Shown: in pieces, positions 51,889-59,322 of the stretch
Layout: each line of letters starts with the position of its first letter
Numbering within the stretch: the stretch's first letter is position 1
Assembly: GCA_963842685.1 (NCBI GenBank)
Contig: CAWJHT010000046.1
Location: 1,440-65,439, forward strand
Origin: an uncultured delta proteobacterium
GTDB lineage: Bacteria; Desulfobacterota; Syntrophia; Syntrophales; UBA5619
Length of the DNA: 64,000 bases
Direction of reading: 5' to 3'
The notes under the pieces: generated by a model
Told to the model about the DNA's origin: nothing
Databases searched by the model: none
What the model saw: only the letters and a program-made list of their open reading frames with translations
Made by a program: the position numbers and the translations under genes

Positions 51889-53018
51889 ATGTTCGAATTG
51901 TCGGATACGGGTGTGGTGAGCGCGGCCAAGATCAAGGTGATCGGCATCGGCGGCGCGGGGGGAAATGCGGTGAATACGATGATTTCCTACAACCTTCGGG
52001 GGGTCGATTTCATCGCGGCCAACACCGATGCACAGGCGCTGGGAGCGTCCGCCTCGCCGGTCAAGATCCAGCTGGGCGCCGAGGTCACCAAGGGGCTGGG
52101 CGCCGGTTCGGACCCCGACATCGGCAGACAGGCCGCCCTCGAAACCCGGGAGACTGCTGCGCGAACAGCTCGAGGGAGCCGATATGGTTTTCATCACCGC
52201 GGGCCTCGGCGGCGGCACCGGCACGGGCGGCGCACCGATCGTGGCGGAGATCGCCAGGGAGCTGGGGGCGCTGACCGTGGCGGTCGTGACGAAACCCTTC
52301 CAGTTCGAGGGAAAGAGACGGAACGGCCAGGCCGAGGCGGGGATCGCCGAACTGCGAAAGATGGTGGACACCCTCATCATCGTCCCCAATCAGCGGCTCC
52401 TCAGCCTGGGCGGTCGGAATATCTCGCTCCTCGAGGCCTTCAAGAAGGCCGACGACATCCTCTACCACGCCGTCAAGGGGATCTCCGACCTGATCATGGT
52501 TCCGGGGCTGATCAACCTCGACTTCGCCGACGTGAAGACCATCATGTCGGAGATGGGCATGGCCCTGATGGGGACCGGCATCGGCCAGCGGCGAAAACCG
52601 GGCGGTGGAGGCGGCGCAGAGGGCGATCTCCTCGCCGCTCCTCGAGGACAATACCATCCAGGGCGCCCGCGGCGTCCTGTCTGAACATCACCGGCGGTCC
52701 GAACATGACCCTCTACGAAATCAACGAGGCCTCTTCGCTGATCCAGTCGGAGGCCCACGAGGATGCGAACATCATCTTCGGCACCGTCGTCGACGAGACG
52801 ATGGGCGATGAGATCCGGATCACCGTCATCGCGACCGGATTTGAAAATGCGGACATGCCGAGGAGCAACGTCACGCCGCTGGGCAGCCTCCGGCGGAGCA
52901 ATCTTGCCGTTCCTACCTTCATCCGGAACGAAAAGCCGGCGGACGCCTGCATGCCGGGACGGCCGAGAGGAGGAATCCCGATCTGGAGATCCACGTTCTT
53001 AGGCGTCAGGCGGACTAG
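51889..53018 (+). CDS. ftsZ: Cell division GTPase FtsZ, with about 4 frameshifts
   Basis: [22 protein letters not shown], the tubulin signature [22 protein letters not shown] and NLDFADV. The conserved C-terminal peptide [12 protein letters not shown] ends at a TAG at 53016-53018. Confidence 0.9.
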
Positions 53019-53123
53019 ACGGCTTCGGAAAATCCCGATGCTGGACGATCGCCTCATCGCTTCCTCAGGCGGCATGCGCGGACGCCTCAGCCGCAGGATC
53101 GCGCGCTTGCCGGGACGTAAGGC

Positions 53124-54842
53124 ATGATGGAGGGTCAGATGTCCTGGAAGCTGAAGAAAAAGATGCCTCGATCTCCTCGCCGGGGAAGAGGGCTACGTCC
53201 GGAAGGTCTGGGGGGAGGCCCTGACGGTCTGCCTCGCCTATCCGAACGTCTACCGGACGGGGATGTCCAACCTCGGCTTTCAGACCGTCTACGCCCTGAT
53301 CAACCGCCATCCCGCCTGCCTGTGCGAACGGGTCTTTCTCCCCGATCCGGCGACGAGGCGGCCCATGCCGCCTCTCCCGCCCCGCTCTTCAGCCTCGAAT
53401 CGCAGCGGCCCCTGGCCGATTTCGACATGGTCGCCTTTTCCCTCTCCTTTGAAAACGACTATCCCAACATCCTCAGGATCCTCGAGATGGCGGGAATCCC
53501 CCTCGAAGCGGCGGCGCGGGACGGAGAGGGATCCCCTCGTCATCGGCGGCGGCATCGCCGTCACCCTGAACCCCGAACCCCTCGCCGACTTCTTCGATCT
53601 CTTTCTGATCGGCGAAGGCGAGGCCCTTCTCCCCGATTTCCTCGACGCGGCGGTCTGCCCTCCGGCGGGAACTCACCCGGGAGGCGTTCCTCGCCCGGAT
53701 CCAGAAGGAGATTTCCGGGGCCTACGTCCCCCGCTTTTACCGGGTGACCACCGATCCGGAAGGGCGCATCGCCGCCCGGGAACCCCTCGACGCCGCCTTC
53801 CCCCGGCGGATCGTCCGGCGCTTCGGCCCCCGACATCGACGCCTTCCCGACCGAACAGGGGATCACCACCGAGGGCACCGAATTCGGCGGCATGTTCCTC
53901 ACGGAGGTCAGCCGGGGATGCCGGCGGGGCTGCCGTTTCTGCGCCGCCGGCTTCGTCTGCCGGCCGGCGCGTTTCCGGAGCGCCGCGACCCTGGAGGCCT
54001 CCTTCCGGCGGGGGCTCGAAAAGAGAAAGACGATCGGCCTGCTGGGAACGGCCGTCTCGGACCACCCCGATCTCATCCCCCTGTGCCGCTCCATTCTGGA
54101 ACAAGGGGGGATCTGTGGCCGTCGGCTCCCTCCGCCTGGACCGCCTGAGCGGACCGATGGCGGCGCTCCTGAAGGAGACCGGCGTGGAGACCCTCTCCCT
54201 CGCACCCGAGGCCGGCTCCCAGCGCCTCCGGGACGTGATCCGCAAGGGGATCACCGAAGAGGAGATCTTTTCCGCAGTGGACAATCTCCTGGAATATGAT
54301 ATGGTGCAGTCTCAGGCTCTACTTCATGGTCGGCCTCCCGACGGAGACGGACGAGGATGTGGATGCCATCATCCGTCTGGTCAAGGGGATGGAACACCGG
54401 GCCCGCCGCACTTCGGCAGGGAAGAAGGGGTTCCGGCGTCTGACGCTCAGCATCAACCAGTTCATCCCGAAGCCCGCCACCCCCTTCCAGTGGCACCCCC
54501 TGGAGGATACGGCCGTCGTCAAGCGAAGAATCCGGCGGATCACCGACGGCCTGCGCGGCGAGAAGGCGGTCTCGGTCACCCACGATCTTCCGAAGTGGAA
54601 TTACATCCAGGCCCTCCTCGCCCTGGGCGACCGGAGGGTGGGAAAGCTGCTTGCTGGCGGTCCACCGGCTCGGAGGCAACTGGGCGCAGGCCTTCCGGGA
54701 GGTGAACGTGAATCCCGACTTCTACGTCTACCGCCGGAAGGAGACCGAGGAGATCCTGCCGTGGGATTTCATCGACCACGGCGTCGAAAAAACAGTTCTC
54801 GTCAAGCGAATACCGGAAGGCATTGTCCGAAGAAATCCTTAA
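53124..54842 (+). CDS. Uncharacterised radical SAM protein with a B12-binding-like N-terminal region (I recall it as TIGR03960-like). About 8 frameshifts; start uncertain.
   Basis: [66 protein letters not shown] and [31 protein letters not shown]. The radical SAM cluster motif is [16 protein letters not shown]. Then [15 protein letters not shown] and [15 protein letters not shown]. The C-terminus ...[10 protein letters not shown]... ends at 54840-54842. Confidence 0.75.
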
Positions 54843-54854
54843 GGAGACAAGACC

Positions 54855-57604
54855 ATGACCATTATCCATCCACCAAGGCCCAGGCCAGACAGATGAAAGG
54901 GATGATCGTCTTCATCGCCGCGCTGGTCCTGTTTATGATCTTTCTGCGGATCATCGGCCTGATCACCGACTGGTTCTGGTTCCAGGAGGTGGGTTACGAG
55001 ACGATCTTCACCGTGACCCTCCTGGCAAAGATCAAGACCGGCGCCCTCTTCGGGGCGGGCTTCTTCATCATCCTCTACGGCAATCTCCTGATCGCGCTTC
55101 GCCTGTCGCGGGAACCCCTTTTCGGCGATCAGGCGGGGCGGAGGGTTCGGCATCCCCTTCCGGGAGATGGAGCCGGGCCTCCTCAAGGTCCTGATCCTCA
55201 TCGGCTCCCTCCTCTTCGGCCTTTTCGCCGCCGCCAACGGCTCCGCCCAGTGGGAAAACCTTCTCCTCTTCCTGAATCCGTCCCCCTTCGGCGTCTCCGA
55301 CCCGCTCTTCCAGAAGGATATCGGCTTCTATGTCTTCCAGCTCCCCTTCCTCCTCCACATCTACGGCTGGCTGAAGTTCGTCCTGATCGTGACGGCGGCG
55401 GCGACCGGGTTCATCTATCTGATCCGGCGATCGTTTCTGTTCATCCCGCCCCGGATCTGGAAGATCGCCCCGGCCGCGCGGATTCATCTCGCGCTTCTCG
55501 TCGCCCTCTTCTTTTTCTGGGGCGTCTTCGGCGCCTGGCTTGACCTCAACGATCTGCTCTTCACGAAACGGGGGGTGGTCTTCGGCCCGGGCTACACCGA
55601 CGTGACCACCCAGCTCTGGGTCCTGAAACTCATGATGGGGCTCTACGCCCTCGCCGGGCTCGCCGCGATCTTCTTCGCCTTCCGCCCGGACTGGCGTTTT
55701 CCGGCGGCGGCGATTCTCCTGCTCATCGCCGTGTCGGTCCTGGGCCGGGGGATCTACCCCTCCCTCATCCAGAAATTCCAGGTCATTCCCAACGAGATCG
55801 TCGCCGAGACCCCCTACCTGGAGAAGAACATCCGGTACACGCGCCTCGCCTACGGCCTGACCCAGATCGAGGAGAAGGAGTTCCCGACGGAGGAGAATCT
55901 GACGGCGAAGGACCTGGAGAAGAACAACCTCACCGTGAAGAACATCCGGCTGTGGAACCATGCGCCGCTCCTGCAGACCTACAGCCAGCTCCAGGAGATG
56001 CGGACCTACTACAAGTTCACCGGCGTCGACAACGACCGCTACACGATCAACGGCGAATACCGGCAGGTGATGCTCTCCCCGCGGGAGATCTCCTATCCGG
56101 CCCTGCCGTCCCGGACCTGGGTCAACGAACATCTCGCCTACACCCACGGCTACGGCGTCGTCCTGGGCCCCGTGAACCGCATCTCCCCCGAGGGGCTCCC
56201 GGAATTCTTCATCAAGGACATCCCCCCCGTCTCGACGACGCCGCTCAAGGTGACCCGCCCGGAGATCTACTTCGGGGAGAACTCCAACGAATATGTCTTC
56301 GTCCGGACCAAAATGCCGGAGTTCGACTACCCCGTGGGCGACAAGAACGTCTACTCCCGCTACGAGGGAAAGGGGGGCGTCCCCCTCTCCTTCCTGAAGA
56401 AACTGATCTTTGCGGTCCGTTTCGGCTCGATCACGATGCTCCTGTCCGACGACATCACCTCCGAGAGCCGCATCGTGTACCACCGGAACGTCCGCGAGCG
56501 GGTCTCGATGATCGCCCCCTTTGCCCACCTGGATGCGCGACCCCTATCTCGTCATCTCGCCCGAGGGACGCCTCCTGTGGTTCGTCGACGGCTACACGGT
56601 CGACGGACCGCTTCCCCTATTCGGAGCCGACCCCGGAGATGGGCAACTACATCCGCAACACCATCAAGGCGGTCGTCGACGCCTATGACGGCACGGTCCA
56701 GCTCTACGTCAGCGATCCGACCGATCCCATCATGCAGACCTACAGCCGGATCTTCCCCGGCGTCTTCAAGCCGATGGGCGAGATGCCGGAGGCGCTCCGG
56801 AGCCATGTCCGCTATCCGCCGGGACTGCTGGCGATCCAGGCGCGGATGTACCGGGCGTACCACATGCAGGACCCGCAGGTCTTCTACAACAAGGAAGACC
56901 TCTGGTCCATCCCCGGCAAACAGGTCGCCGGCGGCCAGCAGGCCATGGACCCCTACTACACGATCATGAAGCTCCCCGGGGCCGAGAAGGAGGAGTTCAT
57001 CCTCCTTGCCCCCTTCACGCCCAGCATGAAGGACAACATGTCGGCCTGGATGGCCGCCCGCTGCGACGCCCCCCATTACGGGAAGGTGATCGTCTACAAA
57101 TTCCCCAAGCAGAAGCTGGTCTACGGACCCCGCCAGATCGAGGCCCGGATCGACCAGGACACGATGATCTCCCAGCAATTGACGCTCTGGCAACAGCATG
57201 GATCGAACGTGATCCGGGGGAGCCTGCTGGCGATCCCGATCGAGAAATCGATCCTCTACGTCGAATCCCTCTACCTGGCCGCCGCCAACGGCCAGCTCCC
57301 CGAGCTCAAAAGGGTGATCGTGGCCTACGGGAACAACATCGCCATGGAGGAGACGCTCGATCTCTCCCTCCAGAAGATCTTCGGCGGGGGGCCGATGAAG
57401 GACCGGGAGCCGCAGGCGGAGGCGAAGAAGCCGGCGGCCGGCGCGGAGCTGAGCGACCGGCAGACGGCCCTCGAGGCCCTCGGCCATTTCCGGAAGGCGC
57501 AGGAATTCCTCCGGCAGGGGAACTGGGGGGCCTTCGGCGAGGAGCTGAAGAAAACGGGAGAGATCCTCCTGACCCTTGAAAAGAAGGGGGGAAAGGCAAA
57601 ATAG
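54855..57604 (+). CDS. UPF0182-family large membrane protein, with about 4 frameshifts
   Basis: AAGGAG lies 7 nt upstream of the ATG at 54855. The basic N-terminus MTIIHPPRPRPDR joins, after a frame break near 54890, to KGMIVFIAALVLFMIFLRIIGLITDWFWFQEVGYETIF, the hallmark UPF0182 start. Multiple TM helices follow, then a large soluble domain across ORFs 55167..56969 and 55952..57604. Confidence 0.8.
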
Positions 57605-57636
57605 CGAATCGAAACTCATCTTGCAAGGAGGTCGTG

Positions 57637-58366
57637 ATGCATGAATCAGGGATAACGAGGCGGCGACCGCGGCCGCATGCAGGAAAAGGGGAGGAAATCC
57701 CGGCCGGCGGCTCGTCCGGATAGCCGTCGTTTGCCTGTGTCTGCTGGTTTTGCTGAACGGCTGCGCACCCAAGATCTACAACGTCAACATGCGGTATGAA
57801 CCGACGAAGGTGATCCCGCCGGCGGTGACCGACGGCCGGAAATACAGCCTGACCGTGGCCTCCTTCATCGATCAGCAGAAAAATGGAGGACACGCTCCTG
57901 ATCGGCCGGGTGATCAAGTCGGACGGAACCTCCATCCCGATCCTGCCCAGATACGTCAAACCGACGGACGCCGTCGCCGCGGCGCTCCGCGAGCTTCTGT
58001 TCAAATCGGGATACGCCGTCTCCCCGGACAGACCGGCCTGGGATCTCAAGGAGACAACGATCCGGCCGGAGTGGGGAACGATCCTCGTCGGCGGAACCAT
58101 CGACGAGCTCGATGTGACCTGTCTCGAGACGTTCACGATGAAACGTTACAGCGCCAAGGCGCGGGTGACGCTGATCTTCGCCGACGTCCAGAAGAAAAGG
58201 ATCTTCTACCGGGTCACCTCGGAGAGCAGTTCCTCCCTCGACCATATCTTCTTCTCGGAGGAGAAGACTGGAGAGCCAGATCAACGGCGTCCTCTCCGAC
58301 GCCATGGAAAAGGCCATCGAGGGACCGGAGACGGTCCGCCAGATCCGGGAGGCGCTCAAACCATAA
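57637..58366 (+). CDS. Putative lipoprotein of unknown function, with about 3 frameshifts
   Basis: AAGGAGG lies upstream. The lipobox is VVCLCLLVLLNGC. The body is in ORF 57883..58404 (GRVIKSDGTSIPILPRYVKPTDAVAAALRELLFKSGYAV...). The tail LESQINGVLSDAMEKAIEGPETVRQIREALKP lies in another frame. Confidence 0.5.
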
Positions 58367-58434
58367 CCGCATCGGTGACGGCTCAGCAAAAACATGCTCC
58401 ATAGGCAAGGTAAGCGACACCTGTTGCAAAGCCG

Positions 58435-59322
58435 TCACCAGTGGGGCTGGTTGCCGATGCGATGCCCCATGACTTCGGTCGTGTCGGACACGACGACGAA
58501 AGCCTTCGGATCCTCGCTGCGGACGATCTGCTTGAGGGTCGCCACCTCCCGAAAGGTCACCACCGTGTAGAGGATCTGCTGCTCCCGCTGCGGAATAGGC
58601 CCCCTGACCGCGGAGGATGGTCACCCCGCGGTGGATCTCGTTGAGAATCCGGGAGGAGATTTTTTCCCACTGTGGCGAGATGATGAAGATCGCTTTCCGC
58701 TGGCTCAAACCCGTCACCACCAGATCGACGATCTTCGTGGAGACATAGAGGTAGATCAGGGTATAGAGGGCGTCCTCCAGGGAGAAGAGCAGCGCCGCGG
58801 CCGACAACACCAGGATGTTGAAGGCAAGTACGGTCGTCCCCAGGCGGATGGAGAAGCGCTGAAGGAGGATCACCGACAGGATATCGGTCCCGCCGGCCGA
58901 CCCCACCGATTTCAGGATGATCCCGGATCCCGCTCCCTGGATCAGGCCGGCCAGGATGGCAGCAAGAAGCTTGTCCTGGACCGGAACTCCGACATCCACC
59001 CAGGCGACGGCTCCCGCAAACAGAAGCATCCCGATCGATGCTGTAGATGAAGAACCGGCGGCTGATGAAAAACCAGCCGGCGATGAACAGCGGTACGTTC
59101 GCCAGGACATAGATCAGGGCGACGGAGAAAAACGGGAACAGATAATGGAGGACAAGCGCCAGCCCCGTGACGCCGCCGCTGACGAAGCGGTGGGGGATGA
59201 GAATCCCGTTGATGGCCAGCGGCGCACAGCAGGCTCCCCAGAATCAGCAGCCCCAGGTTCCAGCCGATGTTCTTCAGGATCGGCCAGCCGCTCCACTGGA
59301 AAAAGACCGGCATCGAGATCAC
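58435..59322 (-). CDS. YitT-family membrane protein (DUF2179 C-terminal domain), with about 3 frameshifts
   Basis: The N-terminus is NIGWNLGLLILGSLLCA. The core is GLIQGAGSGIILKSVGSAGGTDILSVIL. The C-terminal part reads IFIISPQWEKISSRILNEIHRGVTILRGQGAY and then ...VVTFREVATLKQIVRSEDPKAFVVVSDTTEVMGHRIG, in a shifted frame. Confidence 0.7.

Follow-up and report, generated by a model that had tools for sequence, protein, structure and literature searches.

Gene organization downstream of ftsZ

The gene row considered here adjoins the end of the division and cell wall (dcw) cluster of an uncultured delta proteobacterium of the order Syntrophales and lies within a 64,000-nt stretch (contig CAWJHT010000046.1 of assembly GCA_963842685.1, positions 1,440 to 65,439), which is referred to as the window throughout. 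Behind ftsZ follow the genes for a TIGR03960-like radical S-adenosylmethionine (SAM) enzyme (hereafter rSAM), for a large membrane protein of the UPF0182 family, and for a lipoprotein. An earlier, sequence-only reading of the window had described these three genes after ftsZ, all on the same strand, and had proposed that they form one system. The row itself is borne out after frame correction and comprises the following features.

51889..53018, plus strand: ftsZ, the last canonical dcw gene (4 indels; placed by frame-aware alignment to FtsZ of the intact locus L028)
53019..53138, plus strand: spacer between ftsZ and the rSAM gene, 120 nt, containing a decayed copy of a palindromic repeat (left arm only)
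53139..54858, plus strand: gene for the TIGR03960-like radical SAM enzyme, 571 aa (9 indels corrected)
54855..57604, plus strand: gene for the UPF0182 membrane protein, 916 aa (4 indels corrected; its ATG overlaps the rSAM stop codon as ATGA)
57637..58366, plus strand: gene for an orphan lipoprotein, about 241 aa (3 indels corrected; restricted to one clade)
58374..58440, no strand assigned: hairpin with a 10-bp stem (GGTGACGGCT...AGCCGTCACC) between the lipoprotein gene and a convergent YitT/DUF2179 gene

The corrected ftsZ ends canonically on ...DLEI..LRRQAD with its stop codon at 53016-53018, and the Tubulin and FtsZ_C domains were found in the orthologue from locus L001. The rSAM start falls on the conserved ATGTCCTGGAAG (MSWK) at 53139, with GGAGGG ahead of it, which sets the distance to ftsZ at 120 nt instead of the 105 nt given earlier. 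Of the two short gaps that had been reported within the row, the 12-nt one vanishes, since the UPF0182 start at 54855 (AAGGAG 8 nt upstream) overlaps the rSAM stop; the 32-nt one holds, the lipoprotein ATG at 57637 lying that far past the UPF0182 stop with AAGGAGG ahead of it. A Shine-Dalgarno site is present in front of each of the three genes. Rfam and tRNA scans of the window detected no structured RNA and no tRNA.

The region from 51.9 to 58.4 kb shows no long open reading frames (ORFs). Every gene in it, ftsZ included, is broken into 2-9 overlapping fragments in different frames. The frames were corrected against the proteins of locus L028 (Syntrophus sp. SW.007), which a frameshift-aware dynamic programme aligned to the window at the cost of 17 insertions and 3 deletions; these 20 single-base events are distributed over the four genes as listed above. 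They occur also outside homopolymers. The 16 frame-breaking indels in the three genes behind ftsZ would be expected if the locus were decaying, the frameshifts real, and the genes pseudogenes. The essential ftsZ and ftsA are nevertheless interrupted by the same kind of indel, ftsA being split as well; after correction, the products share 77-95% identity with intact orthologues and contain no premature stops, and the same artefact affects ftsW and murG/murC of the related ENA assembly L001. Because the essential ftsZ and ftsA are hit alike and the products remain so close to intact orthologues, the indels are read as a matter of sequence quality. They point to an error-prone assembly and not to gene decay, and pseudogenes at this locus are hardly credible.

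The radical SAM enzyme

The predicted length of about 570 aa and the cluster motif CRRGCRFC named in the sequence-only reading agree with the corrected protein. The CX3CX2C motif is located at 53919-53942, its three Cys residues are invariant in 41 relatives, and the core matches PF04055 (2.8e-20, 73.6 bits against a Pfam cutoff of 29.5). Likewise, the N-terminal Rossmann/B12-binding-like region described earlier is found as PF19864 (Radical_SAM_N2, E 1.6e-50), which is covered over model positions 1-151 of 151, and the B12-binding family PF02310 stays at 22.8 bits, below its cutoff of 32.1. The protein contains a C-terminal helical domain and no transmembrane segment according to hydropathy. 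It lacks the Cys-rich C-terminal tail that about half of the family possesses. In the alignment of the 41 relatives, the N-terminal domain harbors a single near-invariant Cys, and an auxiliary cluster of the MiaB type is therefore unlikely there.

The label 'TIGR03960-like' is accurate as well. The NCBIfam model TIGR03960 is matched over its full length with 446.4 bits, under the cutoff of 462.3; the intact orthologue P0244 reaches 431.2 bits, relatives linked to ftsZ 407-498 bits, and a canonical member fused to DUF2344 761.5 bits. The uncharacterised TIGR03960/TIGR03936 (DUF2344) pair shares with the window rSAM the PF19864 N-terminal domain, the CX3CX2C core, and the C-terminal helical region. 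The window protein differs from this pair in its score below the cutoff, the missing Cys tail, and the absence of DUF2344 in fused or adjacent form. A tblastn search with DUF2344 domains matched L120, L121, L125, L127, and L131 only, and neither the window nor an ftsZ-linked locus. In a neighbour-joining tree, the rSAMs linked to ftsZ make up three or four clades, each coherent and set apart from the deep clade of the DUF2344-linked, high-scoring canonical TIGR03960 proteins.

The structure was considered on an AlphaFold2 model of a close intact orthologue, not of the window protein itself (predicted local distance difference test, pLDDT, 93). The closest folds retrieved by Foldseek are MgmA (9ccb), AprD4 (6fd2), OxsB, TokK, TsrM, CysS, and MiaB/RimO, with E values of 1.8e-16 to 1e-10, TM-scores of 0.42-0.51, and sequence identities of 12-16%; no close solved relative was found in this search. 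What is common to the structures of B12-domain radical SAM enzymes, MiaB/RimO, and the rSAM model is a Rossmann fold joined to a partial TIM barrel. The window protein is set apart from the B12-domain enzymes by the low identity and the PF02310 score below cutoff. The fold likeness covers B12-binding enzymes (TsrM, TokK, OxsB) and AprD4 alike, and AprD4 is not known to use B12. By analogy with these nearest folds, rSAM might catalyze a SAM-dependent radical modification of a protein, an RNA, or a lipid-linked substrate.

An enzyme coupling lipid tails (Mss/Tes type) was considered from the distribution over Acidobacteria and Desulfobacterota and is unsupported. GDGT-MAS is matched at the level of the core only (rank 35, TMq 0.26), and no lipid-synthase model of NCBIfam exceeds 33 bits. 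Homologues of Mss are reported to be absent from Acidobacteria (PMC13159169).

Linkage of rSAM to ftsZ across phyla

The rSAM family is large, with 2,643 representatives at E below 1e-30. A metagenome scan with the alignment of 41 diverse members as query yielded 80 loci (34-79% identity), 49 of which are informative in having at least 1.3 kb of upstream sequence, the outgroup loci L049-L051 among them. In 28 of these 49 loci, the gene immediately upstream, on the strand of rSAM, is ftsZ. FtsZ_C is the family of 27 of the 64 upstream neighbours, and any other family occurs at most three times. The median distance between ftsZ and the rSAM gene is 125 nt. Looking up the adjacent FtsZ and FtsA proteins by exact match assigns the ftsZ-linked loci to Thermodesulfobacteriota, Syntrophobacterales, the Olavius symbiont Delta 1, Desulfobulbaceae, and Vicinamibacteria/Vicinamibacterales (Acidobacteriota). 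The part of the proposed linkage that concerns rSAM and ftsZ is thus found in two phyla, whereas the part that concerns UPF0182 and the lipoprotein is confined to one Syntrophales clade (see below). Same-strand adjacency to ftsZ of the dcw type holds across distant taxa for rSAM only, the one gene of the row whose attachment to ftsZ has been conserved in evolution.

On the downstream side, the neighbours of rSAM are mixed and comprise alpha/beta hydrolases, DUF2344, YggS (three loci), YfiH (two loci), an RNase H-like protein, a GGDEF regulator, a BamD-like protein, and an AmiC-type amidase. The latter two follow rSAM in ftsZ-rSAM loci, namely the N-acetylmuramoyl-L-alanine amidase at L124:11556-12776 and the BamD/YfiO-like lipoprotein at L108:8003-8635. 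Apparently fused rSAM ORFs of 900-1050 aa in L077, L090, and L128 were discarded, as they are spurious reading frames on the antisense strand of GC-rich DNA.

Two explanations compete for this linkage. As the ftsZ-rSAM adjacency is kept across orders and phyla, rSAM probably serves a process related to division or to the envelope. Alternatively, the enzyme may have no relation to division and represent a housekeeping RNA- or protein-modifying enzyme comparable to MiaB or RimO, whose position is inherited synteny and behind which UPF0182 and the lipoprotein ride as passengers. Such an enzyme would fit the nearest folds, among them the methylthiotransferases of tRNA and ribosomal protein, MiaB and RimO, and the 21 of 49 informative loci that are unlinked to ftsZ. 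It would also agree with the median gap, which permits independent promoters, and with a spacer in which repeats, hairpins, and in one case an entire gene are tolerated. What speaks against it is the persistence of the adjacency over two phyla, between proteins that have diverged to 47-64% (FtsZ) and 36-50% (rSAM) identity and while all downstream neighbours have changed; neutral synteny seldom lasts over such a distance, and the ftsZ-linked state is stable in whole subclades of rSAM. The housekeeping explanation is therefore considered rather unlikely.

Few gene arrangements of bacteria are as conserved as the dcw cluster, and division factors have repeatedly been recognized among the products of its accessory genes. 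Genes appended to it include lpxC in gamma-proteobacteria and ylmD, ylmE, sepF, and divIVA in Gram-positives and cyanobacteria. The rSAM gene resembles them in lying directly 3' of ftsZ on the same strand, in a position that is kept across lineages, and differs from all of them in encoding a radical SAM enzyme. An effect of such an enzyme on division is described for QueE of E. coli, the over-production of which blocks septation after Z-ring formation (PMC4974570). QueE is not homologous to rSAM and not encoded near ftsZ, and it serves as an analogy only. A literature search, which was incomplete and is no proof of novelty, found no paper that ties a radical SAM enzyme to the dcw cluster or ftsZ. 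An uncharacterised rSAM behind ftsZ in at least two phyla, from a subfamily separable from canonical TIGR03960, constitutes a testable candidate for a new enzymatic step of cell division or of envelope formation among anaerobes and soil bacteria that have received little study.

The UPF0182 block in one Syntrophales clade

A scan from the side of UPF0182, restricted to one genome per GTDB species, returned 46 loci. rSAM is found directly upstream of UPF0182 in 26 of them, all of which belong to one Syntrophales clade with UPF0182 proteins at least 72% identical. Wherever the available sequence allows the comparison, ftsA and ftsZ precede rSAM and the lipoprotein gene follows UPF0182 in these loci. 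The identities range between 62 and 87% for rSAM, 72 and 91% for UPF0182, and 56 and 76% for the lipoprotein, and the full row is present in L001, L052, and L132 as well. Syntrophus aciditrophicus (L022) belongs to this clade. The tight spacing on a shared strand noted earlier is thereby retained in 26 related species-level genomes: ftsZ and rSAM are mostly 6-218 nt apart, rSAM and UPF0182 overlap by 4 nt (ATGA) in ten loci and are mostly separated by 3-55 nt in the others, and 10-159 nt lie between UPF0182 and the lipoprotein gene.

Outside the clade, this arrangement breaks up. Seventeen UPF0182 loci from at least five phyla, which comprise other Syntrophales (60-68% identity), Acidimicrobiia, Elusimicrobiota, Gemmatimonadaceae, Methylomirabilota, an archaeon, and an unclassified bacterium, contain no rSAM gene, no ftsZ, and no gene for this lipoprotein within up to 10 kb as far as the contigs extend, and their downstream neighbours differ. 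Seen from the other side, none of 69 downstream neighbours of rSAM outside the clade is a UPF0182 gene. In one of the Elusimicrobia loci, another radical SAM gene (474 aa, 23% identical, 47 bits; L036:6232-7656) is encoded two genes upstream of UPF0182; since the related locus L033 lacks it, its presence is probably incidental.

The outgroup loci L049-L051 indicate how the clade-specific row arose. Their rSAM proteins are 62-64% identical to that of the window and are encoded 46-115 nt after ftsZ without UPF0182 next to them; rSAM is followed there either by an EEP phosphatase gene, at a distance of 2 nt in L049, or by a convergent acyl-CoA ligase gene. The pair formed by the EEP gene and a gene for a 174-aa protein adjoins rSAM in L049 and is located 3-9 kb downstream of the lipoprotein gene in members of the clade. 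As this pair lies beyond the UPF0182 block in the clade, the block that starts with UPF0182 looks inserted behind rSAM.

These data bear directly on the single system proposed in the sequence-only reading, i.e. a septum- or envelope-modifying system in which a radical step in the cytoplasm, a membrane machine, and a partner in the periplasm would be expressed together with the divisome. The cohesion of the row inside the clade agrees with it: the three genes stay together in all 26 genomes, even in L018, where an antisense gene cuts them off from ftsZ (a histidine kinase stands in for the lipoprotein in L015), the ATGA overlap suggests translational coupling of rSAM and UPF0182, and no terminator is present in the window spacer. 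Yet the trio is unlinked outside this one family-level clade, whichever of rSAM and UPF0182 is followed, rSAM is elsewhere equally close to unrelated genes such as the EEP phosphatase gene of L049, the UPF0182 block resembles an insertion, and the lipoprotein family has only 247 members. A single three-part system is consequently regarded as distinctly improbable.

The UPF0182 protein

The corrected UPF0182 protein closely matches the earlier description of about 915 aa with an N-terminal multi-transmembrane domain. It aligns to PF03699 over model positions 3-770 of 770 (E 2.6e-293, 975 bits against a cutoff of 27), and the hand-stitched sequence, which was the one scored, remains under the NCBIfam equivalog cutoffs. 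Hydropathy indicates about seven hydrophobic segments (residues 18-36, 56-84, 109-127, 163-191, 201-229, 256-274, and 279-297). No such segment occurs past residue 300, and a soluble domain of about 600 aa follows the transmembrane block. The nearest homologues are up to 94% identical, all from metagenome-assembled genomes of Syntrophales or 'Deltaproteobacteria'.

The statement that UPF0182 has no assigned function is outdated, as a functional proposal is now available. Knock-down of the sole UPF0182 gene of M. smegmatis correlates phenotypically with that of ftsH, yccA, and the gene for a small transmembrane protein, similar correlations are described for C. glutamicum and B. breve, and AlphaFold3 suggests a tetrameric periplasmic dome of UPF0182 that binds YccA (10.1101/2025.11.14.688347, 2026 preprint). 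The phenotypes cited there further comprise adhesion of C. diphtheriae and iron homeostasis of M. tuberculosis (10.1101/2025.11.14.688347). The actinobacterial proteins (MSMEG_1959, cgp_0896, and the sole homologue of B. breve) belong to the same full-length Pfam family and share the architecture of about seven transmembrane segments and a large extracytoplasmic domain. The window protein, by comparison, stems from a Gram-negative member of the Syntrophales and adjoins a clade-specific lipoprotein, not the small transmembrane protein MSMEG_4237. Extended from the actinobacterial data, membrane-protein quality control linked to FtsH and YccA is the best functional lead for UPF0182, and no radical SAM enzyme takes part in it. 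The families of FtsH, YccA, and HflKC are not among the most frequent Pfam families of the window ORFs, and no ftsH or yccA gene was noticed in the vicinity of UPF0182. UPF0182 should not be interpreted via rSAM; its placement here is recent and lineage-specific.

The lipoprotein

The third gene had been described as encoding a lipoprotein of about 240 aa with the lipobox LLNGC, in accordance with the corrected product. The N-terminus reads ...LVRIAVVCLCLLVLLNGC|APK, with a hydropathy of 3.09 over residues 25-39; the lipobox ends at 57761, and its G and C do not vary among 34 homologues, the majority of which contain LSGC. No Pfam family (E up to 10) and no NCBIfam family matches the protein, and its profile detects nothing among PDB sequences at E up to 10. 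Among 5.8 billion clusters, 247 homologues were retrieved, all of them labelled 'hypothetical'. From its position, the lipoprotein is probably a lineage-specific periplasmic partner of UPF0182.

In another Syntrophales lineage, a different lipoprotein of 167-169 aa is encoded about 30 nt after UPF0182 (L002:12765-13274 and L024:8565-9068). A conserved pair of UPF0182 and a homologous lipoprotein was considered and rejected, the hhalign comparison with the 169-aa protein of L002/L024 covering the signal peptide only (probability 1.5%). The theme of UPF0182 with a small lipoprotein recurs without homology between the lipoproteins.

Transcription signals and the variable spacer

A terminator followed by an independent promoter was sought behind ftsZ, and neither a terminator-like nor a sigma-70-like site was detected in the window spacer (53019-53138), which folds no more stably than shuffled sequences (z = 0.27). 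The hairpin behind the lipoprotein gene, by its minimum free energy of -37.5 kcal/mol (z = -4.2), is more stable than any of 200 shuffles (0/200 as stable), has a long loop, and lacks a T-run. The YitT orthologue (DUF2179) beyond it lies on the minus strand and is convergent with the lipoprotein gene. The hairpin probably marks the end of the transcription unit; it may act as a bidirectional terminator or be another repeat. Judged from these signals and the spacing, the three genes are probably transcribed together in the window, and possibly with ftsZ as well.

In members of the clade, palindromic insertions are concentrated in the spacer behind ftsZ. In L003, L009, and L010, a palindromic element of about 130 nt with terminal inverted repeats of 19-28 nt (GGACGGCTTCGGAAAAGGCC...) directly follows the ftsZ stop (L003:2230-2358, L009:8061-8189, L010:8079-8203), with L007:4561-4686 as a further location. 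The motif of its terminal repeats matches at other positions in related loci, and the element has no match in Rfam. The decayed left arm in the window spacer is what is left of this element there. It may represent a repeat of these Syntrophales resembling repetitive extragenic palindromes (REP) or miniature inverted-repeat transposable elements (MITE). The spacer of L019 contains a perfect 20-bp GC-rich hairpin followed by TTTT (L019:8116-8160), which is terminator-like on both strands. ftsZ and rSAM are only 6-9 nt apart in L004, L006, L027, and L028. In L018, a gene for a 1129-aa PHP/UvrD-like helicase on the minus strand (L018:4639-8028) separates the two genes, and the row of rSAM, UPF0182, and lipoprotein genes must therefore have its own promoter there. 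Given this variation, coupling to the transcription of ftsZ probably differs even among close relatives.

A probable composite locus

With slightly better than even confidence, the row is read as a composite locus, in which a later, lineage-specific UPF0182-lipoprotein pair was added to an old ftsZ-rSAM pair, and not as one system. The older unit would consist of ftsZ and the gene for the cytoplasmic TIGR03960-like rSAM, which Acidobacteriota and several orders of Desulfobacterota have kept side by side. A block that opens with the genes for UPF0182 and a new lipoprotein would then have been inserted directly behind rSAM in the ancestor of one Syntrophales clade. UPF0182, with about seven transmembrane segments and a large, presumably periplasmic domain, might also in this organism act in the quality control of membrane proteins together with FtsH and YccA, and the lipoprotein would join it in the periplasm. 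Co-expression of the three genes would be a recent arrangement, which provides no evidence for a shared pathway.

Several observations weigh against the composite locus or parts of it. The polarity of the event, insertion and not deletion, is derived from few outgroups, and the clade itself includes L015 with its histidine kinase gene in place of the lipoprotein gene. The 21 informative loci away from ftsZ make the rSAM link a property of subfamilies, not of the whole family. Gaps of about 125 nt between ftsZ and rSAM leave space for separate promoters, and the variable spacer, which in part of the relatives holds terminator-like hairpins, may weaken co-expression with ftsZ. The connection of UPF0182 to FtsH comes from Actinobacteria alone and from a preprint. 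Finally, the AlphaFold2 model of the lipoprotein, calculated with 34 homologues, reaches a pLDDT of 44, and its putative interaction with UPF0182 is suggested by adjacency.

A stronger version would make the ftsZ-linked TIGR03960 branch without DUF2344 a divisome accessory enzyme of Desulfobacterota and Acidobacteriota that modifies a component of division or of the cell wall, for instance FtsZ, FtsA, or a lipid-linked precursor, and that became coupled in this clade, physically or in function, to an envelope complex of UPF0182 and the lipoprotein; this is deemed unlikely.

Apart from the row behind ftsZ, the window contains a direct repeat of 699 bp at 1-699 and 2200-2898 (97.4% identity), which spans the 5' portions of two minus-strand genes for methylmalonyl-CoA mutase. 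It stems either from a recent tandem duplication or from faulty assembly at the window edge.

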